DNA of 64,000 bases. It comes from an uncultured Bacteroidales bacterium (GTDB lineage: Bacteria; Bacteroidota; Bacteroidia; Bacteroidales; Paludibacteraceae). This document shows, piece after piece, positions 8,375 through 62,678 of this stretch; position 1 is the first letter of the stretch; every line of letters starts with the position of its first letter. Made by a program: the position numbers and the translations under genes. Location: contig CALCGR010000151.1 of assembly GCA_937901025.1 (NCBI GenBank), positions 2,714-66,713 of the forward strand, written 5' to 3'. The notes below the pieces were generated by a model. It worked only from the letters and a program-made list of their open reading frames with translations. It searched no databases and was not told the DNA's origin.

Positions 8375-8397
8375 GCGGTATTGAAAAATGAATAACC

Positions 8398-8425
8398 GTG
8401 CATCGTGCATCGTGCACCTTGCACC
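8398..8425. repeat. Micro-array family C copy C1 (heptamer GTGCATC x4), intergenic
   Basis: gtgcatc gtgcatc gtgcacc ttgcacc, immediately upstream of the 8439 gene. Confidence 0.85.
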
Positions 8426-17666: not shown

Positions 17667-17676
17667 CAGCCGAAAT

Positions 17677-17775
17677 TATATACGAACGGATATAAATAGG
17701 CAAAATACCTATTATTTATATACGAACTAATATAATATATGTAATATCAACCTTTTTTATATGCAAACGGATATA
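17677..17775 (+). promoter_or_regulatory. Three 18-bp operator-like repeats between promoter and hipB start
   Basis: tatatacgaacggatata (17677-17694), tatatacgaactaatata (17717-17734) and tatatgcaaacggatata (17758-17775), spaced 40-41 nt. Each is an imperfect palindrome TATAT-N8-ATATA. The third overlaps the ATG. Confidence 0.55.
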
Positions 17776-26229: not shown

Positions 26230-26247
26230 TAAAGAAAGGATAAGATT

Positions 26248-28068: not shown

Positions 28069-28081
28069 AAATTAAACAACA

Positions 28082-29392: not shown

Positions 29393-29412
29393 TGCTTAAA
29401 AATTAACGAATT

Positions 29413-31788: not shown

Positions 31789-31810
31789 TCCATCATCTGC
31801 TATACAAATT

Positions 31811-31843
31811 CAGGGGAAGTCGCAAGACCTCCCCTGTTTTTTT
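31811..31843 (+). terminator. Rho-independent terminator after the susCD/SGBP unit
   Basis: caggggaagtc GCAA gacctcccctg (11-bp stem, one mismatch), then T7 at 31837-31843. Confidence 0.8.
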
Positions 31844-31883
31844 GATACTAATTTATCCAAAATCGTTGCAATAGTGCGCATTA

Positions 31884-31915
31884 TTTGCATAAGTGCAAAA
31901 GATTTTGTAACTTTG
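31884..31915 (+). promoter_or_regulatory. Promoter P9 for the 17-gene CAZyme run
   Basis: TTTG 31884-31887, 20 nt, TAACTTTG 31908-31915. The upstream gtgcgcatt motif is also seen at about 455-470. Confidence 0.65.
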
Positions 31916-31947
31916 TAGCCAAATTAGAAAAACATTCAATTTATAAT

Positions 31948-34471: not shown

Positions 34472-34472
34472 T

Positions 34473-35396: not shown

Positions 35397-35420
35397 TAAC
35401 CCTAAAATAATTTTATACAA

Positions 35421-41842: not shown

Positions 41843-41870
41843 CACTAACCACTAAGCACTAACCACTAAT
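41843..41870. repeat. Micro-array family E copy E1 (heptamer CACTAAC x4), intergenic
   Basis: cactaac cactaag cactaac cactaat fills nearly the whole 31-nt gap between two genes. Confidence 0.85.
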
Positions 41871-43222: not shown

Positions 43223-43246
43223 GTGGAGAGTTTAGAGTTTAGAGAC
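43223..43246. repeat. Micro-array family B copy B1 (reverse orientation) covering the epimerase start
   Basis: gtg gagagtt tagagtt tagagac, read as M-E-S-L-E-F-R-D. Confidence 0.8.
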
Positions 43247-44338
43247 ATATTAACGACGAATATCCTGCCTTATTGGCTAAGGTTGCAAGACCCTGTCCAT
43301 GGCGGGTTCTACGGGCAAGTGCTCGCAGATGAGACAGTTGTCAAAGAGGCAAACCGCGGAGCCATCCTCTATGGTCGTATCCTCTGGACTTTCTCTGCCG
43401 CCTATCGCGCGTTAGGAAATAAGGAGTATCTGGTGGCAGCCGAGAATGCGAAGGACTATATCCTCAACCATTTTATTGACCGTCAGCAGGGTGGGGTATA
43501 TTGGGAACTCGACTATTTAGGCAACCCTGTTAATGACCGCAAACAGTTCTATGCTTTGGGTTTTGTCCTTTATGGACTTACGGAGTATATCCTCGCCACC
43601 GGCGACGCTGCGGTCCTGCCTTATGCCATTGACCTCTATCGCTGTATTGAGCAACACGCTTGGGACCCGCAATCGGGTGGTTATATCGAGGCTACTCAAC
43701 GCAATTGGAGTGCTATCTCCGATTATCGCTTGAGCGAAAAAGATGTCAATGCACCTAAGTCGCAAAACACCCACCTGCATATCCTCGAACCCTATACAAA
43801 CCTCTATCGTGTTTGGCCACAAGAGGAGGTCAAACAGTCGATTCTGCGTCTTATCGAGGTCTTCAAAAACCATATCATTCAGCCTTCCGGTCATCTCGGT
43901 CTATTCTTTGATATGCAGTGGCACCCCTCATCTCTAAACTCTCAACTCTCAACTCTCAACTATTCTTGCGGTCACGACATCGAGTTCTCGTGGCTATTGG
44001 ATGAGGCTTGCGAGGTGATTGGTGTGAACGAGGACGAGACCGTTCAACGTGTGGCACAAGCAGCCAAAGAGGGTCTCTTGTCCGACGGACGAATGGAAGG
44101 TACGTGGTGGGAACAGTGTGAAACCATCATTGGTTATACGAATATCTATCGCCGTTTTGGAGGCGAGGAAAACAAACGAATAGCTGAGCGTTGTTGGGAA
44201 GCGACCAAAAAATATTTCATCGATTACGAACATGGCGAGTGGTGGGAGTATCCCTACTCCCAAGCAGACAAGGCCGGCTTTTGGAAATGTCCATATCATA
44301 ATTCACGATTATGCATACACTTATTATCTTTTTGTTAA
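43223..44338 (+). CDS. Cellobiose 2-epimerase / N-acylglucosamine 2-epimerase family
   Basis: ILPYWL.., GGVYWELDYLGNPVNDRKQFYALGFVLYGLTEY, NTHLHILEPYTNLY, GHDIEFSWLL. The only possible start before the conserved ILPYW is GTG at 43223. Confidence 0.8.
   Translation: MESLEFRDILTTNILPYWLRLQDPVHGGFYGQVLADETVVKEANRGAILYGRILWTFSAAYRALGNKEYLVAAENAKDYILNHFIDRQQGGVYWELDYLGNPVNDRKQFYALGFVLYGLTEYILATGDAAVLPYAIDLYRCIEQHAWDPQSGGYIEATQRNWSAISDYRLSEKDVNAPKSQNTHLHILEPYTNLYRVWPQEEVKQSILRLIEVFKNHIIQPSGHLGLFFDMQWHPSSLNSQLSTLNYSCGHDIEFSWLLDEACEVIGVNEDETVQRVAQAAKEGLLSDGRMEGTWWEQCETIIGYTNIYRRFGGEENKRIAERCWEATKKYFIDYEHGEWWEYPYSQADKAGFWKCPYHNSRLCIHLLSFC
43931..43964. repeat. Micro-array family B copy B2 (heptamer CTCTCAA), in frame in the epimerase
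   Basis: tctctaaactctcaactctcaactctcaactatt, read as SLNSQLSTLNY. Confidence 0.9.
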
Positions 44339-45726
44339 CACTTCCGTCGCTTATTTGCGACAACATGCTGCTGCAGCAGCAAGCAAACGTTAACCTCTGG
44401 GGCACCGCTACTCCGGGTAACACCGTATCGGTTTATGCCACATGGGGAGAACAAGTAGAAACAACCGTAGGCAAAGATGGCAAATGGCTCGTCCAAATCC
44501 CTACACCCGCTGCGTCTTACACGGAGCATACGCTCACGTTCGTGGAGACGCCCACCAAAAGGGCTTACTATAATCCCGATCCGGTGCAAGTGAACCACGT
44601 CCTCGTCGGTGAGGTGTGGTTTGGTTGCGGACAGAGTAACATGGAGATGCCCCTGATGGGTTTTTGGCAATGTCCTACCGAAGGGGCGAATAAAGAGATT
44701 GCTACCGCAGGACAATATGCCGGTAAGATTCGTTATGCGGTTATTGACCACGTTCCCGCGATGGAACCGCAGGACTTTATGTCCGGTCAATGGTATGAAT
44801 GTAATGCTTTCAATGCTCCTCGTTTTGGTGCAGCAGGGTATTTCTTTGCCAAACTGTTACAACAAGCCCTCGATATCCCCGTGGGTGTTATCAACTGCTC
44901 TTGGGGCGGTAGCCGCGTAGAAGGTTGGTTACCTCGCGAGATCCTCAATACCTACAAGGATGTGGATCTTACCGAAAAAGGAATGAAACAATGGGAAAAA
45001 CAAGACTATATGCGTCCGCTCGTGATGCACGACGGTATGCTGTGGCCTTGCCATTACTACACGGTCAAAGGATGGATATGGTATCAAGGTTGCTCGAACA
45101 TCGGTCATGCAGACACCTATACCGACCGTATGGAGACGCTTGTTAAGTATGTTCGCGGTTTATGGAAGAACGATAAGATGCCGTTCTATTTCGCTGAGAT
45201 AGCACCCTTCCGTCATGGCGACCCGCAAGCTACTTGGGCTGCTGAACTGCGTGAGTCGCAATGGGCACTGGAAGACCGCGTACCATATTGCAAAGGTATC
45301 TCTACCAACGACCTTGTGTACGATTATGAGATAGACAATATCCACCCTGCACAAAAACAAGCCGTAGGCGAACGTTTTGCTTATCTCGCTCTCAATCACG
45401 ATTACGGATTTAAGACTGTTTATGCCGATGCTCCGCGTTATGAGCGTCACGAGATTAGTGGCAACCATATTGATGTGTATTTCACCAACTGCGCCGATGG
45501 TTTCTCGCGTTGGCACGACTACAAAGGTTTTGAAGTCATCGACGAAAGCGGAAACGTGCATCCCGCTATCATTGAGGGCGTACAAGACGTGCCTCACGCG
45601 CTGCGTTTCTCCGCCGAAGGAGTTACTAACCCTAAGGCGGTTCGCTATTGCTTCCGCAATTTCCAAATAGGCAACCTCGCCAATATGCGCTACTTACCGA
45701 TTGTTCCATTTAGAACGGATAAATAA
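44311..45726 (+). CDS. SASA/DUF303-type carbohydrate O-acetylesterase
   Basis: LPSLICDNMLLQQ..NLWG and GEVWFGCGQSNMEMPL (catalytic Ser region), GGSRVEGW. Overlaps the epimerase 3' end by 28 nt. Confidence 0.75.
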   Translation: MHTLIIFLLTLPSLICDNMLLQQQANVNLWGTATPGNTVSVYATWGEQVETTVGKDGKWLVQIPTPAASYTEHTLTFVETPTKRAYYNPDPVQVNHVLVGEVWFGCGQSNMEMPLMGFWQCPTEGANKEIATAGQYAGKIRYAVIDHVPAMEPQDFMSGQWYECNAFNAPRFGAAGYFFAKLLQQALDIPVGVINCSWGGSRVEGWLPREILNTYKDVDLTEKGMKQWEKQDYMRPLVMHDGMLWPCHYYTVKGWIWYQGCSNIGHADTYTDRMETLVKYVRGLWKNDKMPFYFAEIAPFRHGDPQATWAAELRESQWALEDRVPYCKGISTNDLVYDYEIDNIHPAQKQAVGERFAYLALNHDYGFKTVYADAPRYERHEISGNHIDVYFTNCADGFSRWHDYKGFEVIDESGNVHPAIIEGVQDVPHALRFSAEGVTNPKAVRYCFRNFQIGNLANMRYLPIVPFRTDK

Positions 45727-46763
45727 TGAAAAAAGTATTGATTTTTGCCTCTCTGTTTGCTGTTATTGGCATGTTTGTCTCTTGCCAATGCAACCATCAT
45801 GTTAAGGAGTCCACTTTTGTAGGTGCTAATCTTTGGAATGGTGACCTCACGCAATTAGATGCCTTACAGACTATAGGAGTCAATAACATCCGCGTCAAAG
45901 CGACCGACGGAGAGAACCTCGATCCGCTACTCACTGAACTCGAACAACGAGACATGCAGGCCGTCCTCTTCCTTACCAATGCTTGGGAGTGGTCCACGGG
46001 GTATGAGCAGTATTATAGTCAAGCTACGGGAGAGTCTGTGCTCTTGCCTTCCGAAGTAGGTTATCCTTACTATATGGAGCATGCAGGACGGTTCCTGAGC
46101 AATGCTAAAGCCGTAGCTTTATTTGACGAATATGTCACCACGGTGGTTAATAAATACAAACACTATAAGTCTATCTATGCTTGGCAAATAGCCAACGAAC
46201 CGCGCGCCTTCGGACAAGACCCCGACGTGCTGGTTGCGTTCATTGACCACGAGGCTAAACTCATCAAGAAACTCGACCCTAATCATAAAGTCACTACCGG
46301 TTCGGAAGGTATATGGGGCTGCAACGAGGACTCCGTTCTCTGTCGCCGTATTCACGAAGTGCCCGAAATCGATTACATGACCTGCCATATCTGGCCCTAT
46401 AACTGGGGTTGGCTAAAGGATGGTATCGATTGGAAAGCGAATGTCAAAGCCTATATCCAATGGCATGAGGACATCGCTACCCGTATTGATAAACCGTTTA
46501 TTATAGAGGAGTTTGGTTTCCCGCGGGATAACCACGAGGTAACCCCTGCCCCCTACACCTCTACTCCTCTACCCCCGACTACCCAACGCGACGAGATGTA
46601 TCGTCTTATCTTCGAAAGCCTACAAACTGTGCCGCATCTTATTGGTGCTAACTTCTGGTGCTGGAAACAAGACCCTCCGCAAGAGCCTCAAGGACTGAAC
46701 TCCGTTCTGCCGACGGACACTACAACGCTCAATATTATTCGTCAATATAACGCGCAAAAATAA
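45726..46763 (+). CDS. GH5 family glycosidase, probably beta-mannanase (lipoprotein)
   Basis: Lipobox MFVSC. FVGANLWNG, AWQIANEPR, TTGSEG, CHIWPYNWGW, IIEEFG. Confidence 0.7.
   Translation: MKKVLIFASLFAVIGMFVSCQCNHHVKESTFVGANLWNGDLTQLDALQTIGVNNIRVKATDGENLDPLLTELEQRDMQAVLFLTNAWEWSTGYEQYYSQATGESVLLPSEVGYPYYMEHAGRFLSNAKAVALFDEYVTTVVNKYKHYKSIYAWQIANEPRAFGQDPDVLVAFIDHEAKLIKKLDPNHKVTTGSEGIWGCNEDSVLCRRIHEVPEIDYMTCHIWPYNWGWLKDGIDWKANVKAYIQWHEDIATRIDKPFIIEEFGFPRDNHEVTPAPYTSTPLPPTTQRDEMYRLIFESLQTVPHLIGANFWCWKQDPPQEPQGLNSVLPTDTTTLNIIRQYNAQK
46543..46584. repeat. Micro-array family A copy A3 (C-rich strand on +), in frame in GH5
   Basis: cccctgccccctacacctctactcctctacccccgactaccc, read as TPAPYTSTPLPPTT. 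Confidence 0.85.
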
Positions 46764-48328
46764 TGCAACACAATCATTTTCTACATCGTGCATCGTGCAT
46801 TGTGAATTGTGCACTTGTACTTTCACTTTCCACTTTGAGTGCCCAAAATCCCTATCTCCCTTTGTGGGAGTTTATTCCGGATGGTGAACCCTATGTGTTT
46901 GCCGATCCTGACTGTCCGGGCAAGGAACGTGTCTATATCTATGGCTCGCACGACATAGCCCAAACGGAGTATTGCGGACGTAACCAAGTGGTGTGGTCTG
47001 CACCGGTGGAAGACCTTACCCAATGGCGGTACGAGGGAGTGGCTTTTCAGTCTATTCTCGATGCTAATGGCAAGATGCTCAACGAGAGCGGTATAGGAGA
47101 TATGCTCTATGCCCCCGACATCACTTACAAAGACGGTCTCTACTATTTCTACCCCAATAACCAGACTTGGGGACATCGTAACGCACAAGTGGCTGTCGGA
47201 ACTCGTCCGGGCGGACCTTTCCATGTCATCAACTGGAACGACACTATCCCTTATAACTGCGATGGCGAACTGGGCTTTGATCCTGCTGTCTTTGTAGATG
47301 ACGACGGGCGCGTATATGCCTACTGGGGGTATATCCATAGTGAGATGGCGGAGTTAGACCCCGAAAAGATGTACTGCGTCAAAGCCGGTACGCCCATCTA
47401 TCGCGACCGGATCTCTTCCATCGAAGACTCTACCGGCATCTATCGTTTCCTCGAAGCATCCAGTATGCGGAAGATAGAGGACAAGTACGTGCTTATCTTC
47501 TCGCGTTTTACTGCCGATGGCGAGAGCGGACTGTCTGTGAGCAACTACACACTCGCTTATTGCTATAGTGATCAACCTTTGGGACCGTGGACTTATGGCG
47601 GTACTATCATCGATGCCCGTGCTCCCGGTGTAGATGATGAAGGCAATGCTATTCCTACCGCTAATCCGTTTGGTAACACGCACGGCGGGCTTTGTCTTAT
47701 CAACGGACAATGGTGGATCTTCTACCACCGGCAGACGGGACTCAATGAGTTCAGTCGGCAAGCTATGGTAGCACCCGTCCAAGTCAGTGTGGAGAAAGGT
47801 AAGGGAGGCAAAGTGATTATCAGTCAAGCCGAAGTGACCTCCGAAGGTTTCCGTACCGAGGGATTGGATCCATTGGTTAAGACTCCGGCAGCACTGATGT
47901 GCTATTTCACGCACCCCAAGAAAGCCGAACAGCAATTCCCTAATTTTACCCTGTACGGCAGTTATGTGGAACCCAAACAAAACGGTATTCCCGTAGTGAA
48001 TAACACTTCCGGAAGTACCATAGGCTATAAGTATTTCAATTTCGATGCGCTTGCAAAGGCAAAGAAAGTAAATTTTCACCTCAACCTCGTTCCTAAAACC
48101 GAAGGGCAGATCACTGTCCTTGTCGGCGGTCCTACCCCCAAACAAGGCGGCAAAGAGATTGGACGGATAAAAATCACTTCACAATCCACTAACTATGCAT
48201 CGTGCATTGTGAACCGTGCACTCTCCACGCTCAAAGGTAAACAGCCTTTGTTCTTTGTTTTCTCCTCCGAAACCGAAGGACAATCGATTTGCGACTTCTA
48301 CGATTTCCAATTTGAAATCATAAAATAA
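46763..48328 (+). CDS. GH43 family glycosidase with C-terminal beta-sandwich region
   Basis: NPYLPLWEFIPDGEPYVFADPD..RVYIYGSHD, LYAPDITYKDGLYYFY. The signal peptide is encoded by arrays C2/D1. Confidence 0.75.
   Translation: MQHNHFLHRASCIVNCALVLSLSTLSAQNPYLPLWEFIPDGEPYVFADPDCPGKERVYIYGSHDIAQTEYCGRNQVVWSAPVEDLTQWRYEGVAFQSILDANGKMLNESGIGDMLYAPDITYKDGLYYFYPNNQTWGHRNAQVAVGTRPGGPFHVINWNDTIPYNCDGELGFDPAVFVDDDGRVYAYWGYIHSEMAELDPEKMYCVKAGTPIYRDRISSIEDSTGIYRFLEASSMRKIEDKYVLIFSRFTADGESGLSVSNYTLAYCYSDQPLGPWTYGGTIIDARAPGVDDEGNAIPTANPFGNTHGGLCLINGQWWIFYHRQTGLNEFSRQAMVAPVQVSVEKGKGGKVIISQAEVTSEGFRTEGLDPLVKTPAALMCYFTHPKKAEQQFPNFTLYGSYVEPKQNGIPVVNNTSGSTIGYKYFNFDALAKAKKVNFHLNLVPKTEGQITVLVGGPTPKQGGKEIGRIKITSQSTNYASCIVNRALSTLKGKQPLFFVFSSETEGQSICDFYDFQFEIIK
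46784..46846. repeat. Graded heptamer array C2/D1 encoding the signal peptide
   Basis: catcgtg catcgtg cattgtg aattgtg cacttgt actttca ctttcca ctttgag tgcccaa, read as HRASCIVNCALVLSLSTLSAQ. Confidence 0.9.
48198..48232. repeat. Micro-array family C copy C3, in frame near the GH43 C-terminus
   Basis: catcgtg cattgtg aaccgtg cactctc cacgctc, read as ASCIVNRALSTL. Confidence 0.85.
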
Positions 48329-48338
48329 ATAACTTTAA

Positions 48339-49937
48339 ATGAACAATTCTATGAAACACTCTCAACATTTTACATCGTGCATTATGAATTGTGCACTTGT
48401 ACTTGTCACTCTTGTTCTTGCTTCCTGTCAACCCTCTGACCCGACTCTCGTCACCACCCATTATGGTAAGGTGCAGGGTTTTATGGAGGATAATATCCGC
48501 ATTTTCTTGGGTGTTCCTTATGCTCAAGCACCCGTCGGCGAACTGCGCTGGCGTGAGGCGTTGGCACCGCTACCCTATGATACGGTACTGCAAGCTAACC
48601 ATTTTGGTGATGACGCTATCGTTCCTTATGTTTATTGGGATATGCATTATCGTGGTAAACAACAATCCGAAGACTGCCTTTACCTTAATATATGGGCACC
48701 TAACACGCGTAAGTCCAACCTGCCCGTTCTCGTGTATTTCAACGGTGGCGGTTTGATAACCGGCAGTGGTAGCGAAACACGCTATGACGGTAAGTCGCTT
48801 GCTGAGCAAGGAATCATCATGATTACCGCTAATTATCGCGAGAACATCTTCGGGTTCTTTGCTCATCCCGAACTCACGGCTCGCTCGGCTGCGCACACCT
48901 CCGGTAACCAAGGGCTGACCGACCAAGCACAAGCGATTAAATGGGTATATGAAAACATCGCTAAATTCGGAGGCGATCCCAAACGCATTACTATCTCCGG
49001 CGAATCGGCAGGCTCTTTCTCCGTATCTATGCAGATGTGCTCTCCCTTGTCCAAGAACCTGTTGGCAGGCGGTATCGGTTCCAGCGGATCCGTGCTGATT
49101 CCGGATTACTACTACACGCTTGAGCAGGCCGAACAAATGGGCGTAAAGCGCGTACAAGAGGTCGGCAAGACCATTGACGAGTTACTGACTATGGACGCTT
49201 ACGAACTGGCAAAGTTGATGCCTCTTACGGATATGCCCAAACCGACCATTGACGGGTATTTCCTTACCGATAAACCGGAGAATATCTATGCCAATAACGA
49301 GCAGGCGCAGATTCCTCTTATGGCAGGGTGGAACCGCAACGAAGATAATCCGCATTGGAAAATCAAAACCAAACCGACTTTAGACAAACTGCGTCACTCC
49401 GTTTTCCCATGGTGGGACGACAAGATTTTTGCTATTTTTGACCTTTATGGCATTCACACCGATGCTGATGTCTTCACCCGCAAGTCGGTCGATATGTGCT
49501 CTGACCTCTTCACGGGAAACTGCACATGGCGTTGGTGCGACATCCACCGTCAGACGGGGCACACGGTATATCGTTACAAGTTCATGCCCGACCGCCCATT
49601 GGATGGTCAGCCGTACGACTCCCTCGCCGGTGCTTGCCACTCGGCAGATATTGAGTACTCGCTGGGTAACTTGCATCAGAACACGTTCTATAATTGGAAG
49701 GAACGCGACCATCAACTGTCTAAACTCTTCTCTTACTACACCGTTAATTTCATTCGCTGTGGTAACCCGAATGGCGAACAATACCATGATACCATGGTGA
49801 TTAACGGCAAGCAGGTAGAGGAGTGGATGCCTCTCACCGAAGAGGGCGAGACAATGATACTCGACTACGAGCCTTATCTCAATGCTGACCAAGCTATCGA
49901 AGAACGCTATCATAAACTAAACAACTTATTTAAATAA
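48339..49937 (+). CDS. Type-B carboxylesterase/lipase family protein (lipoprotein)
   Basis: Nucleophile elbow ITISGESAGSFSV, oxyanion region FNGGGLITGSG, lipobox LVLASC. Confidence 0.85.
   Translation: MNNSMKHSQHFTSCIMNCALVLVTLVLASCQPSDPTLVTTHYGKVQGFMEDNIRIFLGVPYAQAPVGELRWREALAPLPYDTVLQANHFGDDAIVPYVYWDMHYRGKQQSEDCLYLNIWAPNTRKSNLPVLVYFNGGGLITGSGSETRYDGKSLAEQGIIMITANYRENIFGFFAHPELTARSAAHTSGNQGLTDQAQAIKWVYENIAKFGGDPKRITISGESAGSFSVSMQMCSPLSKNLLAGGIGSSGSVLIPDYYYTLEQAEQMGVKRVQEVGKTIDELLTMDAYELAKLMPLTDMPKPTIDGYFLTDKPENIYANNEQAQIPLMAGWNRNEDNPHWKIKTKPTLDKLRHSVFPWWDDKIFAIFDLYGIHTDADVFTRKSVDMCSDLFTGNCTWRWCDIHRQTGHTVYRYKFMPDRPLDGQPYDSLAGACHSADIEYSLGNLHQNTFYNWKERDHQLSKLFSYYTVNFIRCGNPNGEQYHDTMVINGKQVEEWMPLTEEGETMILDYEPYLNADQAIEERYHKLNNLFK
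48373..48421. repeat. Graded heptamer array C4 encoding the signal peptide
   Basis: catcgtg cattatg aattgtg cacttgt acttgtc actcttg ttcttgc. 34 nt match 46782-46822 with one mismatch once one unit is removed. Confidence 0.9.
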
Positions 49938-49939
49938 TA

Positions 49940-51073
49940 ATGATTATGAAAAAAATCCTTTTTATCGTACTTTCACTTTCACTTTCCACACTAAGTGCCC
50001 AAGAAAAACCGCTCCTTTGCCCGACTCCCCCTATGGGTTGGTCGTCTTGGAACACGTTTGCTTGCGACATTAACGAAGACCTTATTAAAGCCGTTGCCGA
50101 TGAGATGGTTGCTACCGGACTCAAAGATGCCGGTTATCTCTATGTCAACATAGACGACTGTTGGCACGGACAACGCGATGCCGACGGGTTCATTCAACCC
50201 GACCCAGAACGTTTTCCTTCGGGTATGAAAGCGTTAGCCGACTATGTGCACAGTAAAGGACTGAAGTTAGGTATCTACTCCGATGCCGGAACAGAGACCT
50301 GCGGCGGTCGCCCCGGCAGTTTAGGTCACGAATATCAGGACGCTCTCCAATACGCTCGTTGGGGTATTGATTACCTCAAATATGACTGGTGCAATACGGA
50401 GAATGTGAATCCCAAGGGTGCCTATACGCTGATGTCAAAAGCCCTTCGCGCTACAGGACGGGATATCGTCTTCTCGCTGTGCGAGTGGGGAGATAACAAA
50501 GCCTATGAGTGGGCAGAACCTATTGGTCACCTTTGGCGTACTACAGGGGATGTGGCCTGTCTGTTCGACGGCATAGTAGACCACGGCACGTGGAAATCCT
50601 TAGGTGTGATGCCTATTGTGGATATCAACGAGAAACTGCGCCAATATGCAGGACCCAACCACTGGAACGATCCCGATATGTTGGAGGTCGGCAATGGTAT
50701 GACCCCCGCAGAAGACCGTACCCATTTCTCCCTCTGGTGTATGATGGCTGCACCGCTGATCTTAGGTAACGACATTCGTTCTATGAGTGCCGAGACCCAG
50801 GCGCTCCTCACCAATAAAGCCCTTATCGCCATCGACCAGGACCCGTTGGGCGTACAAGGTTGGCGTGAGAAGACCGAGGACGGGGTAGAGTATTGGATTA
50901 AGCCGTTGCAAAATGATAAAGAGGCTCGCTGCATCGTCAATCGTGGCAACGAACCTAAGATTATTCAACTCGACCAAAAGATTAAACCGATTCTTCCTGT
51001 CTGCAAGAAAGCACAAAAGAAATTTACCCTTGCCCCGCATGATGTAATCGTTTATGTAGAGGATAAACAATGA
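49940..51073 (+). CDS. GH27 alpha-galactosidase
   Basis: PPMGWSSWNTFACDINE, YVNIDDCW, YLKYDWC, LCEWG, PDMLEVGN. Confidence 0.9.
   Translation: MIMKKILFIVLSLSLSTLSAQEKPLLCPTPPMGWSSWNTFACDINEDLIKAVADEMVATGLKDAGYLYVNIDDCWHGQRDADGFIQPDPERFPSGMKALADYVHSKGLKLGIYSDAGTETCGGRPGSLGHEYQDALQYARWGIDYLKYDWCNTENVNPKGAYTLMSKALRATGRDIVFSLCEWGDNKAYEWAEPIGHLWRTTGDVACLFDGIVDHGTWKSLGVMPIVDINEKLRQYAGPNHWNDPDMLEVGNGMTPAEDRTHFSLWCMMAAPLILGNDIRSMSAETQALLTNKALIAIDQDPLGVQGWREKTEDGVEYWIKPLQNDKEARCIVNRGNEPKIIQLDQKIKPILPVCKKAQKKFTLAPHDVIVYVEDKQ
49967..50002. repeat. Array D2 encoding the signal-peptide C-region
   Basis: gtactttcactttcactttccacactaagtgcccaa (VLSLSLSTLSAQ). Compare 46817-46846, gtactttcactttccactttgagtgcccaa (VLSLSTLSAQ). 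Confidence 0.9.
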
Positions 51074-53016
51074 CCCTACTCATTGCTCTGACCACATTAT
51101 TACTCAATGCCGATTGGCGTTTCCATTTGGGTAACGCTGCCGATCCACAAAAGGACTTCGGTTGCGGAACGGAGTATTTCAATTACCTTACCAAAGCGGC
51201 GAGTATTCATAACGAAGGACCCTATGTCCCTTCCTTTAATGACTCCGCTTGGCAGGTGGTACAGATTCCTCACGATTGGGCAACGACCCTGCCTCACGCG
51301 CCCGAAGCCAGCCATAGCCACGGTTACCAAACCATCGGTTATGCCTATCCCGAACATAGTGTAGGGTGGTATCGCAAGATGATTACGCTAGACACGGTGG
51401 ATTATACAATTCCTCATCGCCTTATGTTTGAGGGAATTTTCCGCGATGCGCGCGTGTGGGTCAATGGGTTCTATGTAGGACATAACGAGAGCGGTTACCT
51501 TGGTGCTTCTTATACGATTACCGACTATCTGCACCCGGGCGAAAACCTTATTTGTGTGCGCGTGGATGCAACCCTACAAGAGGGTTGGTTCTACGAAGGT
51601 GCAGGCATCTATCGCAATGTCTATCTAACGATAGGCGACAGACAACAGGCAAAAAAATCTCTCAACTCTCAACTCTCAACTCTCAACTGCACACTTCACG
51701 GAGTGTGTCTCCACCAGGACCACGGCGGGGTAGGGATAGCCGTCCCGAAGGGACTGATGGAGTATCGACTCCGCAAACTCATGGCATTAGGCGTCAACGC
51801 CATTCGCACCGCCCACCATCCTGCCGCCCCCGACTTGTTGGACTTCTGCGACAGTCTCGGTATCTATATCATTGAGGAGAACCGGTTGATGGGCGCCTCC
51901 GAACAGGATTATCTAGCCCTCCAACGGATGATAGAGCGCGATCAGCATCATCCGTCGATCATCCTCTGGAGCATCGGCAATGAGGAATGGGCATTGGAGT
52001 GGAACGGGACAGGCGAACGTATTGCCCGGACGATGACAAACTGGTGTCACGCACTCGATAGGACACGGCTCGTCACCGTCGCCACCTCTTCCGGACCGGA
52101 TATCGTGCGCGGAGTGGATATAGCGGGTTTCAATTACATGAGGCAAAACGACCTTGCCGGTTTCCATGCGACTTATCCCGATCGACTCGCTATCATGACT
52201 GAGGAAACGACCGGCTGCGGTACGCGAGGCGTAGCCACATATAATGATGCTATTGAGAAGGGCTGGCAAAATGTGCTCGATAACGATTGGATACGAGGTA
52301 TCTTTTATTGGACGGGGTTTGACTATAAGGGTGAACCTAATCCTGCCCAATGGCCTTCGGTTAGCAGTTTGTTTGGTGTACTCGATCTGTGCGGGTTTAT
52401 GAAAGATGAAGCGTATTTCTTACAATCCGTTTGGACGGATAAACCGGTGTTACATATTCTTCCGCATTGGAACCTGACAGGACAAGAAGGGGATAGCGTC
52501 ACCGTGTGGGTATATTCGAATATGGACGAGGTTGAACTGCGTGTCAACGGCAAACGACTTGAACGTCAGCCGATGCCCAAGGTAGGACACCTCGAGTGGA
52601 AAACCATCTATCAACCCGGTTCTGTCGAAGCCATCGGTTATAAGAACGGACGCATCGCTAAACGAGAAAAAGTCTATACCGCCGGTCCGGCAACGCAAGT
52701 AAGTCTTGATACGGTCACCTATAGCGGTACCACAATTATGGATATCACTTTGCTTGATAAGAAAGGGCATTTCTGCCCAACCGCTTGCGACTCTGTTCAA
52801 GTGGAGTGGACACAACCCGTCCGCATCTTAGGCTACCATAACGGCAACCCTACTGCCCACCTCCAAATGCCGGACACTAAACACCAAACACTAAACACTA
52901 TAACAATCCCTGCCTTTAATGGCCATGCACAAATCATTTATGAAAATCTTCAATCTTCAATTAGCCCATCGGGTGATTATTCTAACAATATTCTTAGCGC
53001 TCGTATCATGCGCTAA
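51070..53016 (+). CDS. GH2 family glycosidase apparently lacking the Ig-like second domain (possibly degenerate)
   Basis: N-terminal sugar-binding domain (NADWRFHLG, WYRKM, VWVNGFYVGHNESGY, GIYRNVYL) runs within about 23 aa into the TIM barrel (GVCLHQDHGGVG, NAIRTAHHP, WSIGNEE, MTEETTGCGTRG). The last 77 nt overlap the next gene. Confidence 0.65.
   Translation: MTLLIALTTLLLNADWRFHLGNAADPQKDFGCGTEYFNYLTKAASIHNEGPYVPSFNDSAWQVVQIPHDWATTLPHAPEASHSHGYQTIGYAYPEHSVGWYRKMITLDTVDYTIPHRLMFEGIFRDARVWVNGFYVGHNESGYLGASYTITDYLHPGENLICVRVDATLQEGWFYEGAGIYRNVYLTIGDRQQAKKSLNSQLSTLNCTLHGVCLHQDHGGVGIAVPKGLMEYRLRKLMALGVNAIRTAHHPAAPDLLDFCDSLGIYIIEENRLMGASEQDYLALQRMIERDQHHPSIILWSIGNEEWALEWNGTGERIARTMTNWCHALDRTRLVTVATSSGPDIVRGVDIAGFNYMRQNDLAGFHATYPDRLAIMTEETTGCGTRGVATYNDAIEKGWQNVLDNDWIRGIFYWTGFDYKGEPNPAQWPSVSSLFGVLDLCGFMKDEAYFLQSVWTDKPVLHILPHWNLTGQEGDSVTVWVYSNMDEVELRVNGKRLERQPMPKVGHLEWKTIYQPGSVEAIGYKNGRIAKREKVYTAGPATQVSLDTVTYSGTTIMDITLLDKKGHFCPTACDSVQVEWTQPVRILGYHNGNPTAHLQMPDTKHQTLNTITIPAFNGHAQIIYENLQSSISPSGDYSNNILSARIMR
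51658..51687. repeat. Micro-array family B copy B3 (4 perfect CTCTCAA units) at the GH2 domain junction
   Basis: tct ctcaactctcaactctcaactctcaac, read as SLNSQLSTLN. Confidence 0.9.
52874..52901. repeat. Micro-array family E copy E2, in frame near the GH2 C-terminus
   Basis: acactaa acaccaa acactaa acactat, read as DTKHQTLNTI. Confidence 0.85.
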
Positions 53017-55360
53017 GAACGAAGTCACAATTCGCGTTACTAACCCGACTGAGAATGGCCCTAGAATAGTTCGTTTACAAGCCGTGAATGACAACACGAT
53101 TCGTGTTACTTCTACCGCAGAAAATAAACTCCGCGACCGTAAGAGTCTTGTTGTAAAATGCACGATGCACGATGCACGATGCACAGTTCACAATATCGGT
53201 GACACCGTTACCTTGCAAACCGCCACTATGGCGGTGAGCGTTGACCGCACCACCGGTCAAGTATGGGTCACTCGTCACGATGGTAAACTGCTACTCAAAG
53301 AGACAGTGGGTAGTCCTTATTTCACGCCTTATGAGTGTACACAAACGGACGTAAATAATAAAGATATCACTTATAACGGCTGGACGTATGCCGTTACGTT
53401 TGATAACCTCTATAACGAAGAAGGTCTTTTTGGCCTTGGTCAACACCAATCGGACGAATGGAACTGGAAAGGACGCGATGAGGAACTCTATCAGTATAAT
53501 ACGAAGGTTTCGCTCCCGATCATCTTCTCAACCGAAGGTTATGGTCTGATGTTCGACACCTACAGCCTCAGTCGTTGGGGTAATCCCGAACCCTATAAGG
53601 CATTGGAAGACTTGTTTGTAGTGGATACTGTGGCTCGTCGTATAGACGCGAAGACGATTGTTTACGAAGGCACCATCACACCGCATAAGACCGGTGAATA
53701 TCGATTCCTTCATTACTACTCCGGTTACCAACAACTCTTTATTGATGGGCAGCCTTTGAGCCCTACTATTTGGAGGACGGCTTGGAATCCGAATGAGCGT
53801 AAATATCGTTATTACATGGAAGAGGGATGTAATTATCATATCCGTCTTACGTGGCAACCCGATGGCGATGTAGCTTATTGCTCTCTTACCGCCCATGCGC
53901 CTGAGACACCTGAGACGCACCAACAACTACGGTTTTGGTCGGAGATGAACCCCAACCTCGACTACTATGTCTTTGCGGGCGAGAATATGGATAGTCTTAT
54001 TCACTCTTACCGTAAGCTCACAGGTAAAGCGACCCTCATGCCTGATTGGGTATTAGGCTACTGGCAGTCGCGTGAACGCTATAAGACCCAAGACGAAATC
54101 GTTGATGCTCTGCGCGGCTTCCATTCACGTAATCTGCCCATTGATAATATCGTCATGGACTGGAACTATTGGGAGCCTTCGCAATGGGGCGCTTTCACAT
54201 TTGAGGATTCTCGTTTCCCTAACCCGCAAGCCATGATTGATACCATTCATGCTTTGGGTGCTCATATAATGATCTCTTGCTGGCCTAAGTATTATCCGTT
54301 CACGGACCACTACCAAGAGATGTTTGCCAAAGGCTGGTTATATCCTCAATCGATTCGCGACTCGCTCATCGATTGGCTCGGGTTCCCGTATGCTTTCTAT
54401 GATGCCTACAATCCGAAAGCCGGCAGACTCTTTTTTGAACAACTATGGGAGCACCTTGGCACGATGGGTATTGACGCGTGGTGGATGGACGCTTCCGAAC
54501 CGAACATCAAAGACTGCACACCTATCGACTATCGCAAAGCCCTTTGCGGACCGACTTATCTCGGTTCATCGGACGAGTATTTTAATGCATATGCTTTGGT
54601 GAATGCGCAGTCTATATACGAAGGTTTGCAACGCAAAGGCGTACAGGATATTTTTCAACTCACTCGTAATGGTTTTCTTGGACAACAACGCTATTCCACC
54701 GCTACTTGGTCGGGCGATATCGGTACGCGTTGGGAAGACATGAAAGCGCAGATTACCGCCGGACAGAACTTCTCCGTGTCTGGTCTTCCATGGTGGAGTC
54801 AAGATATTGGTGGTTTCTCGGTAGAGAATCGTTATGCTGCGGCGCAATACGCTTTTGATGCTACCGGTATAGAGAATGCAGACCTTCAAGAGTGGCGCGA
54901 ACTCAATGTTCGTTGGCACCAATGGGGTGTGTTCACACCTATTTATCGTAGTCACGGACAGTTCCCCTATCGCGAGCCATGGAATATCGCTCCAGAAGGA
55001 CATCGCGCATACAAGGCAATAACTGCATGCCTCAACGAACGTTATAAACTGATGCCGTATCTAAAAGAGATGAATCGCCGTGTTAGCGAAGAGGATTACA
55101 CTATCATGCGACCTCTCGCTATGGACTATCCTACAGACCCCAAAGCTGTGAACTGCGGTTGGCAGTATATGTTTGGACCCGATATTATGGTTTGCCCGGT
55201 CTATAAGTATGGCGCTCGTGAGTGGAGCGTCTATTTTCCTGCCGGCACATGGTACGATTACTATACCGGAGAACTCGTTTCTAAGGGCAATGAGACACGT
55301 ATTGTTCCTGCCCCCTATGACCATAGCCCGATCTTTTTAAGAAATAAACAACAACTATAA
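52940..55360 (+). CDS. GH31 family glycosidase (alpha-xylosidase/alpha-glucosidase type, lipoprotein)
   Basis: Lipobox LALVSC. GIDAWWMDASEPN, TRNGFLGQQRYSTATWSGDI, PWWSQDIGGF, YRSHG. Start chosen at ATG 52940 (MKIFNLQL..). The ORF track starts at 52919. Confidence 0.8.
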   Translation: MKIFNLQLAHRVIILTIFLALVSCAKNEVTIRVTNPTENGPRIVRLQAVNDNTIRVTSTAENKLRDRKSLVVKCTMHDARCTVHNIGDTVTLQTATMAVSVDRTTGQVWVTRHDGKLLLKETVGSPYFTPYECTQTDVNNKDITYNGWTYAVTFDNLYNEEGLFGLGQHQSDEWNWKGRDEELYQYNTKVSLPIIFSTEGYGLMFDTYSLSRWGNPEPYKALEDLFVVDTVARRIDAKTIVYEGTITPHKTGEYRFLHYYSGYQQLFIDGQPLSPTIWRTAWNPNERKYRYYMEEGCNYHIRLTWQPDGDVAYCSLTAHAPETPETHQQLRFWSEMNPNLDYYVFAGENMDSLIHSYRKLTGKATLMPDWVLGYWQSRERYKTQDEIVDALRGFHSRNLPIDNIVMDWNYWEPSQWGAFTFEDSRFPNPQAMIDTIHALGAHIMISCWPKYYPFTDHYQEMFAKGWLYPQSIRDSLIDWLGFPYAFYDAYNPKAGRLFFEQLWEHLGTMGIDAWWMDASEPNIKDCTPIDYRKALCGPTYLGSSDEYFNAYALVNAQSIYEGLQRKGVQDIFQLTRNGFLGQQRYSTATWSGDIGTRWEDMKAQITAGQNFSVSGLPWWSQDIGGFSVENRYAAAQYAFDATGIENADLQEWRELNVRWHQWGVFTPIYRSHGQFPYREPWNIAPEGHRAYKAITACLNERYKLMPYLKEMNRRVSEEDYTIMRPLAMDYPTDPKAVNCGWQYMFGPDIMVCPVYKYGAREWSVYFPAGTWYDYYTGELVSKGNETRIVPAPYDHSPIFLRNKQQL
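52944..52965. repeat. Heptamer array (AATCTTC x2-3) at the GH31 start
   Basis: aaatctt caatctt caattag encodes the first residues KIFNLQL. The same bases are read in another frame as the GH2 tail. Confidence 0.7.
53161..53195. repeat. Micro-array family C copy C5 (reverse orientation), in frame in GH31
   Basis: cacgatg cacgatg cacgatg cacagtt cacaata, read as (M)HDARCTVHNI. Confidence 0.9.
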
Positions 55361-55383
55361 TTAACAATTAAAAATCAACTATT

Positions 55384-56487
55384 ATGAAAAAGCTTTTTAT
55401 TACTGCTTTAGCAGCACTGACACTAGTCGCTTGCGCCACCAAAGAAAACAATTTCAAGGTTCATCGTGGAACGAACCTCAGTCACTGGCTCTCTCAATCC
55501 GAAGTACGTGGAGAGGAACGTGCCAAACACATCCAAGAGGATGATATGGTTCGTCTCGAGTCCCTCGGGTTTGACTTTGTGCGTATCCCTATTGACGAAG
55601 TACAGATGTGGGACGAGGACGGCAATCAACTACCCGAAGCATGGGACTTACTCACCAACGGTATCGACCTTGCTATCAAGCACAACCTGCGTGTAGTTGT
55701 GGATCTGCACATCATTCGCTCACACTATTTCAATGCCGAAAACGAGGATGGTCAATCCGCCAATACCCTCTTTACTTCCGAGGCTTCGCAACAAAGGCTC
55801 ATCGACATGTGGTATGAACTGAGCGAGGTGCTACGCCACTATAGTGTAGATTCTGTGGCATACGAGTTCATGAACGAACCTGTAGCTCCTGAGCACGAAC
55901 AATGGAATCAACTGATTGCGAAGGTTCATAAAGCGTTGCGCGAAGTAGAGCCTCAACGGACACTCGTCATCGGTTCTAACTTATGGCAAGGAGTAGGGAC
56001 TTTTCAATATTTGAAGGTTCCCGAGAACGATAAGAACATCATCCTCTCTTTCCATTTCTATGAGCCGATGGTACTGACCCATTATAACACTTGGTGGAAT
56101 CCCATCCGTTTCTATACCGGTGACGTCCATTACCCGGGACAACTCATCTCTGACGAGGATTGGAATGCTTGTCCGGACGAGGTCAAACCAACCGTAGCCG
56201 ATTATCATCAAGAGTGGAACGAGGAAGTGCTCTATCAACGAATGAAACAGGCTATTGATGTGGCTGATTCGTTGGGTTTGCAACTCTTCTGTGGTGAATG
56301 GGGTGTTTATGAGAATGTCGATCGTGATTGGGCGTATGCTTGGACGCGCGATATGATTAAAGTTTTTAACCGCTTTAATGTGGCTTGGTGCACTTGGTGT
56401 TACGATGCCGATTTCGGCTTCTATGACCAGTTCAAAGAGGACTATAAAGATCGTGAACTTATCAATATCTTAATGGAAAAAGAATAA
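55384..56487 (+). CDS. GH5 family glycosidase (cellulase/mannanase type, lipoprotein)
   Basis: Lipobox [44 protein letters not shown]. Confidence 0.8.
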
Positions 56488-59732: not shown

Positions 59733-60302
59733 TTAGTCGCATAGGGAAAAGAGATCGGCACGAGGGTTGATGAGCATCACGGGAACCTGACTACGCGCGA
59801 TGGCGTGCCGTTCGGGCGGACCGAAAATCAGGTCGTCCAGCCCATATTCCCTACTCGCCGTCAAGATCAGCAGGTCGTTTTTCCATTCAGCTTGCCGCTC
59901 GACCGCCTCTTTGGATAAGTTAAAACTATTTTTCTTAGCCTGCAAGACGCGGTAGCGTATCGGTTCTCCGGTGCGCTGCTTGACCGCCTCTATATGGGTG
60001 ATAATCTTATCGAGGTTCTGCTTGGCCTTGGTACCATAATCGTTCGCCGGGAGCAACAATATCTCCGCTCCCGTCTTACGCGCCAGGTAGGTGCAGATCT
60101 CCGATTTATAAACCTCCTCTTCGAGGAAGGAGACGGGGACGAGGATATGGGAGTAGAGGGGTAGGGGAGTAGAGGAGTAGGGTAGATTCATTGTATCCGT
60201 GATGAACACATACGGACGACGCTCGTCGCGACACTCGTTGAGGTGCCGCTGGATAATCGACGAGCGATTCAGACAGTGAATATATCGTATATCCTCATCC
60301 AT
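59733..60302 (-). CDS. Universal stress protein (UspA) family
   Basis: HILVPVSF.., ..LILTASREYGLDDLIFGPPERHAIARSQVPVMLINP. An alternative start at 60191 (MNLPYSSTPL..) gives a typical 152-aa Usp. Array A4 follows that ATG. Confidence 0.7.
   Translation of the reverse strand: MDEDIRYIHCLNRSSIIQRHLNECRDERRPYVFITDTMNLPYSSTPLPLYSHILVPVSFLEEEVYKSEICTYLARKTGAEILLLPANDYGTKAKQNLDKIITHIEAVKQRTGEPIRYRVLQAKKNSFNLSKEAVERQAEWKNDLLILTASREYGLDDLIFGPPERHAIARSQVPVMLINPRADLFSLCD
60149..60185. repeat. Micro-array family A copy A4, in frame in the usp-like gene
   Basis: gggagtagaggggtaggggagtagaggagtagggtag. The minus-strand gene reads LPYSSTPLPLYS. Its 35-nt core is identical to A5. Confidence 0.9.
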
Positions 60303-61809: not shown

Positions 61810-62678
61810 TGTTGAATAAGTTGTTGAATCGATTCAGAATTAGGAACGAGCGGCAAACGCAAAACGTTATGGATAAGCCCCATCTGACAGAGGACGGTCT
61901 TGATCCCGCTCGGGTTACCCTCTATAAAGAGGTATTTGATGAACTCGTTATAATGCGCTTGCAAGGCTTTGTCCGCGTGTCTAACGATTTGACCAAACGC
62001 CTCGGGATAGGCATTCGACGCTACGGATATCAGTCCGTGCGCTCCTGCCGCCATACCCTCCGCGGCGAGGGCGTCATCGCCGATATATATTTTAAGGGGA
62101 GTAGAGGGGTAGGGGAGTAGAGGAGTAGGGTGGTTCCGCAAGTTAATCAGGTGTTTTATTTGGTCGAGGTTGCCGGAGGCTTCCTTGACTCCCATGATCT
62201 TATCGGGTACGGATTCGTAGATACGCATCACCGTCTCGGGGAGCAGGTTCACGCCCGTGCGCCCGGGCACGTTATATAAGATAATAGGTACGGGACTGAC
62301 CTTGGCAATGGCTACGAAGTGTTGATAGAGTCCTTCTTGAGAGGGTTTATTGTAGTAAGGAGTGACAGTCAAAATGGCCTTGCAATAGTTTAGAGTTGAG
62401 AGTTTAGAGTTTAGAGATTCTATTACTTGTGCCGTGTTATTACCTCCCAGACCGAGGACGAGAGGAAGACGTCCCTTCACTTTGTTCACTACAAAGTCCC
62501 AAACGGCGGTTTTTTCCTCCTCGGTCATCGTAGCCGCCTCCGCGGTCGTACCTAAGACCACAAGGAAATCTACTTTGCCGTCGATTTGTTTTTGTACTAA
62601 GGTGTCCAATCCTTTATAATCCACCGAACCATCGGGGAGAAAAGGAGTAATCAGTGCTGTTCCGAGACCCTGTATCAT
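61791..62678 (-). CDS. dapA: 4-hydroxy-tetrahydrodipicolinate synthase
   Basis: TALITPF, VLGTTAEAATM, VTPYYNKPSQEGLYQHF, LYNVPGRTG, GVKEASGN. Carries arrays A5 and B4 in frame. Confidence 0.92.
   Translation of the reverse strand: MIQGLGTALITPFLPDGSVDYKGLDTLVQKQIDGKVDFLVVLGTTAEAATMTEEEKTAVWDFVVNKVKGRLPLVLGLGGNNTAQVIESLNSKLSTLNYCKAILTVTPYYNKPSQEGLYQHFVAIAKVSPVPIILYNVPGRTGVNLLPETVMRIYESVPDKIMGVKEASGNLDQIKHLINLRNHPTPLLPYPSTPLKIYIGDDALAAEGMAAGAHGLISVASNAYPEAFGQIVRHADKALQAHYNEFIKYLFIEGNPSGIKTVLCQMGLIHNVLRLPLVPNSESIQQLIQQCIHSL
62097..62133. repeat. Micro-array family A copy A5, in frame in dapA
   Basis: ggggagtagaggggtaggggagtagaggagtagggtgg. dapA reads HPTPLLPYPSTPL. Confidence 0.9.
62384..62417. 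repeat. Micro-array family B copy B4 (reverse on +), in frame in dapA
   Basis: The reverse complement tctctaaactctaaactctcaactctaaactatt matches B2 at 32 of 34 positions. Read as SLNSKLSTLNY. Confidence 0.9.

Follow-up and report, generated by a model that had tools for sequence, protein, structure and literature searches.

Shared tandem-repeat modules encode predicted export signals of neighbouring enzyme genes in a Paludibacteraceae polysaccharide-utilisation locus

The stretch of DNA analyzed here, hereafter termed the window, comprises 64,000 nucleotides from an uncultured Bacteroidales bacterium of the Paludibacteraceae (GenBank assembly GCA_937901025.1, contig CALCGR010000151.1, positions 2,714 to 66,713 of the forward strand) and presents a co-directional, tightly packed mannan-type polysaccharide-utilisation locus (PUL). 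Its genes code for glycoside hydrolases (GH) of families GH9/GH26, an MFS transporter, a cellobiose 2-epimerase-like protein, a SASA esterase, a GH5-like mannosidase, GH43, a carboxylesterase, GH27, GH2, GH31, GH5 and GH130. We focus on the 5' ends of three consecutive genes, GH43 (46763-48328), the carboxylesterase and GH27, in which short tandem-repeat arrays, shared in part between the three genes, encode predicted signal peptides. The nearest species-level genome, the metagenome-assembled 'Paludibacteraceae bacterium' GCA_045599545.1, encodes a GH43 protein that is 94% identical (about 80% at the DNA level), beyond which GH43 homologues reach at most 59% identity; several further database relatives also carry the name Paludibacteraceae. 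Close strains were represented by a set of metagenome-assembled contigs that includes L001, L082, L083, L084, L085 (GCA_045598805.1), L086 and L087, some of them, such as L082, taken from Logan. The gene content of the PUL varies among them: L085 lacks both GH43 and GH2, so that GH27 is followed directly by GH31, and the locus of L001 stops after GH27.

The following predicted export signals are encoded at the locus.

46763..46843, plus strand: GH43 signal peptide MQHNHFLHRASCIVNCALVLSLSTLSA, translated from the conserved start, predicted cleavage before Q28.
48351..48428, plus strand: carboxylesterase lipoprotein signal peptide MKHSQHFTSCIMNCALVLVTLVLAS, followed by the cysteine of lipobox LASC; the database protein on the source contig (P0151, 528 residues) starts here.
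49946..49999, plus strand: GH27 signal peptide MKKILFIVLSLSLSTLSA, followed by Q; Paludibacteraceae GH27 proteins of 69-95% identity retain its ..ALSLSTLSAQ end.
52940..53011, plus strand: GH31 lipoprotein signal peptide with an AATCTTC array (52945-52961) and a small hairpin, AGCCCATCGGGTG (52963-52975).

A preliminary description of this DNA, made from its letters, had read the three N-termini from starts at 46763, 48339 and 49940. The first of these stands: the ATG of GH43 overlaps the stop codon of the GH5 gene (TAATG) and, together with its upstream context, is conserved in all strains. The other two give way to the conserved, annotated starts at 48351 and 49946, and the arrays remain coding in either case. 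The possibility that translation begins downstream of the arrays was rejected, since no in-frame ATG, GTG or TTG there would yield a signal peptide, the ATG is conserved and the homologues all need a signal peptide. Indeed, a signal peptide or a lipobox directly precedes the conserved NPYLPLWE in each of the 44 distant GH43 homologues inspected, and in most of them the signal peptide ends in ..A before QNP or NP[YFI], the remainder being of the lipoprotein type. Hence, the arrays appear to form the n- and h-regions of predicted export signals, as had been proposed, and the translations given in the preliminary description are as stated.

The predicted signals conform to known types. In GH43, R9 precedes a hydrophobic core of 12 residues, SCIVNCALVLSL, with a mean Kyte-Doolittle hydropathy of 2.17, and in GH27 two lysines precede the core ILFIVLSLSLST (mean 2.34), against 2.3-2.6 in homologues; both thus display the positively charged n-region and the 7-15-residue core of Sec signal peptides processed by signal peptidase I. 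Both also present small residues at -3 and -1 and a glutamine at +1 (L-S-A/Q-N-P-Y in GH43, L-S-A/Q-E-K-P in GH27), the latter being the Q-rule of the Bacteroidetes (PMC5837995). The carboxylesterase (L-A-S-C, 48417-48428) and GH31 (L-V-S-C, 53000-53011) match the lipobox [LVI][ASTVI][GAS]C, and the lipobox cysteine is conserved in all of their orthologues. The GH43 and GH27 N-termini are therefore plausible signal peptidase I signals with Gln at +1 and that of the carboxylesterase is plausibly of the lipoprotein type, export itself being deduced from these features.

The repeat modules that encode these N-termini, together with a further copy within GH43, are the following.

46772..46827, plus strand: direct-repeat copy A, a carboxylesterase-type N-terminal module (core 46781-46819); L085 10019-10057 aligns to copies A and B.
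46784..46813, plus strand: heptamer array CATCGTG/CATTGTG/AATTGTG, about 4.3 units, two of them perfect (Tandem Repeats Finder, period scan).
46814..46846, plus strand: Leu-Ser hexamer (CTTTCM) module with the cleavage site ..STLSA/Q, homologous to the GH43 N-termini of L001, L086 and L087.
48196..48240, plus strand: array-coded segment in the GH43 C-terminal domain, residues 478-493, YASCIVNRALSTLKGK, hypervariable among proteins more than 91% identical.
48354..48410, plus strand: direct-repeat copy B (core 48363-48401), in the reading frame of copy A (alignments).
49969..49986, plus strand: ACTTTC hexamer array, three units (Leu-Ser), period 6 with 100% matches (Tandem Repeats Finder).

The similarity between these modules lies far above that of shuffled sequences. 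The 30-mer at 46791-46820 recurs at 48373-48402 with a single mismatch, where shuffles lead to an expectation of none, and local alignment of the GH43 and carboxylesterase N-termini (46772-46827 and 48354-48410) yields 48 identical bases out of 57, with a score of 33 against a shuffle mean of 7.4 (standard deviation 1.2), in agreement with the match between GH43 and the carboxylesterase stretch at about 48371-48404 described previously. The repetition of the 3' part of the GH43 array at 49967-50002 in GH27 is likewise borne out (29/34 identical; score 21.5 against 7.2, standard deviation 1.3). A fourth copy, overlooked in the preliminary description, lies at 48196-48240 in the GH43 C-terminal domain, where it is translated in the matching reading frame (SCIVNRALSTL; score 22 against 6.6 ± 1.1). 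The similarity cannot stem from a duplication of whole genes, which was rejected because the mature parts of GH43, the carboxylesterase and GH27 belong to unrelated Pfam families; what is shared is the cassette.

The claim that 46784-46846 constitutes a single graded array of eight heptamers is not sustained, even though the sharing of array DNA by the three N-termini is. Period 7 is detected by Tandem Repeats Finder only across 46784-46813 (4.3 copies, 86% matches, two perfect units), and 46814-46846 consists of CTTTCA/CTTTCC hexamers that share homology with the Leu-Ser arrays, (CTTTCM)n, in orthologues of GH43. Since, in addition, the alignments of the window to L085 and L082 end there, at 46819 and 46812, respectively, 46784-46846 represents a junction of two different modules. 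The predicted GH43 signal peptide is thus a chimera, with a 5' part (46763-46819) that is a carboxylesterase-type copy and a 3' part that supplies the GH43-type Leu-Ser stretch and the cleavage site. This Leu-Ser stretch is common to GH27, whose own ..LSTLSAQ end is kept among GH27 relatives. A CATCGTG array occupies the position of copy B in the L001 and L085 orthologues, and the carboxylesterase site is on this ground the older of the two.

Comparison with orthologous N-termini reveals that start codons and cleavage sites are conserved and that the DNA between them is a patchwork of repeat modules. GH43 proteins that are more than 91% identical in their mature part keep the cleavage site A/QNPY and build their signal peptides from different arrays; they are hypervariable only at the signal peptide and at the C-terminal array site, both of which differ by strain. 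The C-terminal site holds nine CTCTNNA units in L083, and its array stands in place of a native stretch of approximately equal length in distant homologues. The N-termini of the carboxylesterase and of GH27 are likewise hypervariable, with different arrays in each strain, and all indels between close strains fall at array sites (3/3 for the window and L084, 6/6 for L086 and L087).

Adjacent, non-homologous genes were found to share one module within a genome in three genomes, with a different module in each case. In the window and in L084 the module is common to GH43 and the carboxylesterase. In L086 it is common to the carboxylesterase and GH27 (56/62 identical), and the close strain L087 lacks it in both genes. 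In L085 a module is common to the N-termini of GH27 and GH31 (79/84 identical, including the small hairpin AGCCCATCGGGCG); the same module forms the GH31 N-terminus of the window and is present in the L085 epimerase. Equivalent comparisons of adjacent genes in L087 and L001 yield only background scores of 8-11.

The two copies at the GH43 and carboxylesterase N-termini also delimit a segment of variable presence.

46820..48362, plus strand: GH43 segment between the two direct repeats, absent from L085 (BLAST).

In L085 the GH5 gene is followed directly by the carboxylesterase. BLAST pairs L085 7597-10057 with window 44344-46819, and L085 10019-11599 with window 48363-49943; the two alignments overlap by exactly 39 nt, which correspond to the direct repeat, and window 46820-48362, that is GH43, is the indel. 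Recombination between copies A and B would delete GH43 and give the arrangement seen in L085 and, because both copies share one reading frame, would leave an intact carboxylesterase signal peptide.

Array modules are not special to these three genes, in spite of being real shared DNA at their junctions, as families of such arrays are scattered in intergenic spacers and enzyme cores. A scan of the window over periods 4 to 12 finds eight arrays at period 7 and none or one at each of the others. Period 7 also leads in 896 kb of loci from other Bacteroidales, with 25 arrays compared with 1, 1, 11, 6 and 5 at periods 5, 6, 8, 9 and 10. Of the 12 period-7 arrays, seven map between -60 and +90 nt relative to a start codon, against an expectation of 1.26 (P = 1.5e-4). 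About half of the arrays of the window lineage fall inside coding sequence; in the other Bacteroidales loci, according to a crude gene call, 16 of 25 are intergenic and two lie inside coding sequence. Short, multi-copy and with period 7 over-represented, the arrays correspond to dispersed heptanucleotide repeats, the recurrent unit families in the window being CGTGCAT (five sites), CTCTMAA (four sites) and CACTAAM (two sites), besides CTACYCCY octamers. Apart from those at the three N-termini, the heptamer arrays of the window include the following.

8397..8425, plus strand: CGTGCAT heptamer array, intergenic, 14-42 nt upstream of the start at 8439.
41843..41869, plus strand: CACTAAC heptamer array (the unit contains TAA), intergenic, directly upstream of the MFS transporter start.
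43227..43244, plus strand: AGAGTTT array across the first codons of the epimerase gene.
43932..43961, plus strand: CTCTCAA array in frame in the cellobiose 2-epimerase-like gene (SLNSQLSTLNY), +7 residues relative to PDB 3wkf.
51659..51688, plus strand: four CTCTCAA units in frame in GH2 (SLNSQLSTLNC).
52874..52905, plus strand: ACACTAA array at the junction of the GH2 C-terminus and GH31.
53158..53184, plus strand: four ATGCACG units (the reverse complement of CGTGCAT) in frame in GH31 (KCTMHDARCT).
55359..55384, plus strand: AATTAAC-like array, intergenic, directly upstream of the GH5 start at 55384.
62387..62416, minus strand: CTCTAAA/CTCTCAA array in frame in DapA (SLNSKLSTLNY), at a helix position, +2 residues relative to PDB 3pb2.

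One array-coded peptide, SLNS(Q/K)LSTLN(Y/C), is hence common to three unrelated enzymes, the epimerase, GH2 and DapA; at the GH2 site L084 carries a different module, consisting of CAATTCAT units and a GCCGAAGGC hairpin. Units within coding sequence are stop-free in the sense orientation and most of their reverse complements hold a stop codon, so that the orientation of coding arrays can be attributed to a stop-codon filter; stop-containing units occur only between genes, except at 52874, and there the TAA of unit 2 is read as CAA in the coding frame. The octamer class CTACYCCY (GGGGGTAG on the plus strand) is found at 300-342, 15153-15196, 60141-60182 and 62095-62130. The copies at 15153, 60141 and 62095 are sense-oriented in minus-strand open reading frames (ORFs), where they encode PLLPYPSTPL-type peptides; that at 300-342 is part of a short open frame at the edge of the window. 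One octamer array adds seven residues to a DapA loop relative to homologues of solved structure.

At the GH2-GH31 junction the longest ORFs of the two genes overlap by 98 nt (52919-53016), and the overlap with its upstream flank (region 52874-53016) consists largely of ACACTAA and AATCTTC arrays, so that the C-terminal tail of GH2 may represent read-through into junction repeats. In the epimerase gene, the site after ..GEWWEYP (window 44253; L085 7381-7440) is unoccupied in the window; L084 has an octamer array there and L085 an AATCTTC plus hairpin module. Both insertions add 33 nt, and the site appears from these alignments to be an insertion hot spot. The contig ends of L086 and L087 (at about window 51635) and the start of L082 (window 46812) fall exactly at arrays, either as an end or as a change of synteny. 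Such breaks in short-read contigs suggest that the arrays are multi-copy and assembly-breaking; an assembly artefact was rejected as their source, because the same arrays are present in independent NCBI, ENA and Logan assemblies.

Elsewhere in the window, a very large ORF (1501-6771, 1756 residues) and its neighbours at 6914-7663, 8439-10100 and 10118-11059 have no Pfam match. A 147-nt tandem repeat (8982-9391, about 2.4 copies, 75% matches) within ORF 8439-10100 probably corresponds to a repeated protein domain. An AT-rich 41-nt tandem repeat of 2.5 copies (17676-17775) occupies the intergenic region that separates the GH115/GH26 gene from a HipA-like gene.

Taken together, these results lead us to postulate, with a probability of about two in three, that the three N-termini are Sec signal peptides whose n- and h-region DNA has been assembled from dispersed tandem-repeat modules copied between the 5' ends of neighbouring genes, and that they do not act as a switch. 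Two modules are involved, an RTGCAYY-family heptamer and the CTTTCM Leu-Ser hexamer, both of them members of dispersed families of repeats that occur commonly in this Paludibacteraceae lineage and are mostly intergenic in other Bacteroidales. Arrays accumulate, as the data show, where constraint is least: at gene junctions, between start codon and cleavage site, and in variable stretches of otherwise conserved enzymes. Modules are copied between the 5' ends of neighbouring genes, with start codon and cleavage site remaining fixed as the strain comparisons indicate; the mechanism is presumably ectopic recombination over short tracts or gene conversion, with the repeats themselves as seeds. The arrays may be regarded as evolutionary raw material and recombination joints rather than as a rapid on/off switch. 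The initial observation is thus largely real, and its interpretation is right in proposing a shared, translated export cassette and wrong in that the arrangement has precedents, is not one graded array and offers no evidence of a switch.

Several points weigh against this explanation. The n-region of GH43 contains a single arginine and its hydrophobic core an asparagine, and the export status of the three peptides is deduced from sequence features. The direction and mechanism of copying are drawn from a handful of metagenome-assembled contigs, in which gene conversion is not distinguishable from the replicative spread of an element. The arrangement of L085 could be ancestral, with GH43 inserted later, and L082 could be either a real 'off' allele or an assembly chimera.

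If correct, the proposal implies that simple repeats, usually seen as intergenic noise or as phase-variation switches, can become coding sequence for export signals and enzyme segments, and can serve as recombination joints that reshuffle PUL genes while secretion stays intact. In practical terms, gene callers and signal-peptide predictors meet unusual N-termini in these genomes, metagenome assemblies break at arrays (as in contigs L086 and L087), and orthologue clustering by length or N-terminus splits otherwise near-identical proteins. A bolder version, which we put forward as tentative, is that the lineage carries actively proliferating, translated mini-repeat elements (heptamer and octamer arrays, some of them GC-hairpin or palindromic) that act as portable N-terminal export modules and in-frame recombination joints. 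If true, PUL genes (GH43 and GH2 among them) could come and go while the signal peptide of the gene that follows stays intact, enzyme surface segments would be recoded time and again at hot spots of fixed position, and the whole would amount to a repeat-driven modular system for the evolution of secreted-enzyme operons.

Among the alternatives, the one that best survives, although we consider it unlikely, regards the modules as non-autonomous mobile elements, akin to transposable elements of the miniature inverted-repeat class (MITEs), repetitive extragenic palindromic (REP) sequences or Rickettsia palindromic elements, which would be mobilized by a transposase in trans and would favor gene starts and arrays already in place; the shared cassettes would be independent insertions. 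This view draws on the metagenome relatives of the window arrays. A scan for the 17-mer GCATCGTGCATTRTGAA returned at least 120 stretches, about half of them true heptamer arrays; only matches with period-7 context were used, and the other half of the listed matches, which have no array context, are probably due to chance (a rough estimate for a collection of this size is about 100 chance matches). The true arrays lie for the most part between genes, and they frequently make up the inverted arms of long palindromes that enclose a GC-rich core, with cores such as GGCTTTCAGCGCGTAGCC in L142, L151, L099, L148, L182 and L190. Many contigs hold such RTGCAYY palindromes, the stem in L142 reaching 33 bp and -68 kcal/mol. 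Some arrays lie in frame inside large ORFs, giving ..ARCTMHDARLN.SDDAG.NRASCIVNREP.., and palindromes occur in frame within ORFs whose N-termini resemble MnmA, GH2 and GH31 (as judged by eye, not profile-tested); in L190 a lipoprotein signal peptide is built from heptamer arrays.

Also in keeping with mobility, modules with a small GC hairpin occupy three sites within 6 kb of L085, the epimerase site is empty in the window and filled by different modules in two lineages, the families are multi-copy and break contigs, and in-frame presence in conserved genes is evident from the seven residues added to the epimerase and the seven and two added to DapA. Nevertheless, the copies in the window are one-armed direct arrays with variable ends and no inverted partner nearby, their palindromic relatives being found in other contigs only, and in several events a stretch has been exchanged for one of similar length, instead of a clean insertion. 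At the few variant junctions compared by eye, neither terminal inverted repeats nor target-site duplications were obvious, no systematic search having been made. No transposase, reverse transcriptase or integrase was detected by Pfam in 29 of the 38 window ORFs (nine ORFs, 22930-39442, lay outside the scan); with no integrase in that set and with repeats that differ between junctions, the locus does not resemble an integron-like cassette system either. Furthermore, the homology between window copies extends into flanks beyond the array (ATGMAACAC..), as would be expected of conversion tracts.

It is improbable that the arrays are cis-regulatory elements located near start codons whose translation into signal peptides is incidental. 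Their enrichment around start codons, the G-poor sense strand of most units and the comparable role proposed for TAACTGA repeats upstream of start codons (PMC4679880) would fit such a function, but the unit sequence at a given gene is wholly different between close strains, which implies that no conserved binding site exists, and many arrays lie deep within coding sequence. The folding energies of windows from -30 to +60 around the starts do not differ from those of dinucleotide shuffles (z from -1.7 to +1.3), giving no signal of RNA structure or of its absence, and no Rfam family matches the whole window at gathering thresholds.

The preliminary description had further envisaged that changes in unit number would switch the export or translation of individual enzymes on and off. 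As a contingency locus in the manner of Neisseria opa, the array would undergo slipped-strand mispairing at high frequency, altering the number of heptamers and shifting the frame; we regard this as very unlikely. In its favor, the unit length of 7 is not a multiple of three, the arrays lie in 5' coding regions (codons 8-17 in GH43), the unit count of the carboxylesterase array differs between the window and L001, and the L082 contig has no usable start codon, with an in-frame TAA upstream of the Leu-Ser array. The 209 nt upstream in L082 are, however, non-syntenic with the window and may be chimeric. Documented phase-variable heptanucleotide tracts hold 13-38 copies (PMC2651432), and the GH43 array, with its two perfect units, is not a long near-perfect tract. 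Although 466 alignment columns (substitutions and gap positions) differ between the window and L084 over about 15.7 kb, approximately 3% of bases, the two agree fully at all three arrays, and one carboxylesterase allele (protein P0155) is unchanged on 17 contigs. Alleles differ by replacement of whole modules with the frame restored (for instance, +7 and -4 nt between the window and L001) and do not form a series of single-unit steps. The sole series of unit counts concerns the in-frame hexamer, P0004 and P0009 differing by one Leu-Ser unit, and strains compared at the contig level display in-frame replacements only, L082 being ambiguous, instead of the unit-number polymorphism of a contingency locus. 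Given the two perfect units, the identity with L084, the constancy of P0155 and the frame-restoring replacements, a slippage-driven, high-frequency on/off switch is not supported by the sequences compared.

Finally, that the resemblance arose by convergence or codon bias, with signal peptides selected independently and without DNA transfer, can be considered effectively refuted: signal peptides of the lineage do often end in ..LSLSTLSAQ, but near-identity of the DNA extends over 30-84 nt, including synonymous positions and atypical n-region residues (HNHF.HRASCIVN), the L085 alignment breakpoints coincide with the repeat, and the sharing is genome-specific, being absent in sister strains.

The arrangement had been presented as one not seen described before, which does not hold in that form, as repeats in the opa leader peptide (PMC3960869) and heptamers near start codons, including those of Paludibacter (PMC4679880), have already been published. 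In the literature searched we found no description of the systematic translation of such arrays into signal peptides or enzyme segments in a Bacteroidales lineage, of modules shared between neighbouring gene starts, or of such arrays serving as in-frame joints where a gene is inserted or deleted; searches on Bacteroidales heptamer arrays yielded no direct description, beyond the general literature on heptanucleotide repeats.

In the opa genes of Neisseria, CTCTT pentamers form coding repeats in the leader-peptide region and slip at about 1e-3 per generation (PMC3960869). The window arrays resemble them in being tandem repeats of a length that is not a multiple of three, which lie in the 5' coding region and on translation supply the hydrophobic portion of a signal peptide, but opa repeats vary in number and mediate phase variation, whereas here the array is degenerate, with two perfect units, and varies by module replacement.

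In many other respects the arrays of the window are akin to the TAACTGA and short tandemly repeated repetitive (STRR) heptamers, with which they share a dominant period of 7, short length (2-6 copies), dispersal, lineage specificity and clustering just upstream of starts. The cyanobacterial STRR heptamers were reportedly described by Mazel in 1990. The heptanucleotide is said to be the commonest class of long simple-sequence repeats in most prokaryote genomes surveyed (Mrazek 2007, as relayed in PMC4679880), and short heptamer arrays just upstream of start codons are known from Beggiatoaceae, cyanobacteria and some Bacteroidetes, including Paludibacter (PMC4679880). Unlike those repeats, which are intergenic and possibly regulatory, many of the arrays analyzed here are translated, and their unit families differ and are swapped between strains at one site.

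Another parallel is provided by the Rickettsia palindromic elements, reportedly described by Ogata in 2000 as inserted in frame in protein-coding genes. These are defined palindromes of 100-150 bp. The modules of the window likewise consist of repeat DNA translated in frame at tolerant positions of conserved enzymes, with palindromic versions in metagenome ORFs, but the window copies themselves are non-palindromic direct arrays, 20-45 nt long, and in some cases take the place of native sequence. The modules can also be likened to BrickBuilt and to REP sequences and bacterial interspersed mosaic elements (BIMEs), as composite, dispersed, multi-copy repeats that join tandem units with inverted or hairpin parts, BrickBuilt being in addition an element of the Bacteroidales. 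BrickBuilt units measure approximately 22-23 bp, and the element is intergenic. BrickBuilt of Porphyromonas gingivalis is presented as a minisatellite inside a MITE (PMC4596501), unlike the modules of the window, for which no MITE features were demonstrated and several of which encode the predicted export signals of neighbouring enzymes.

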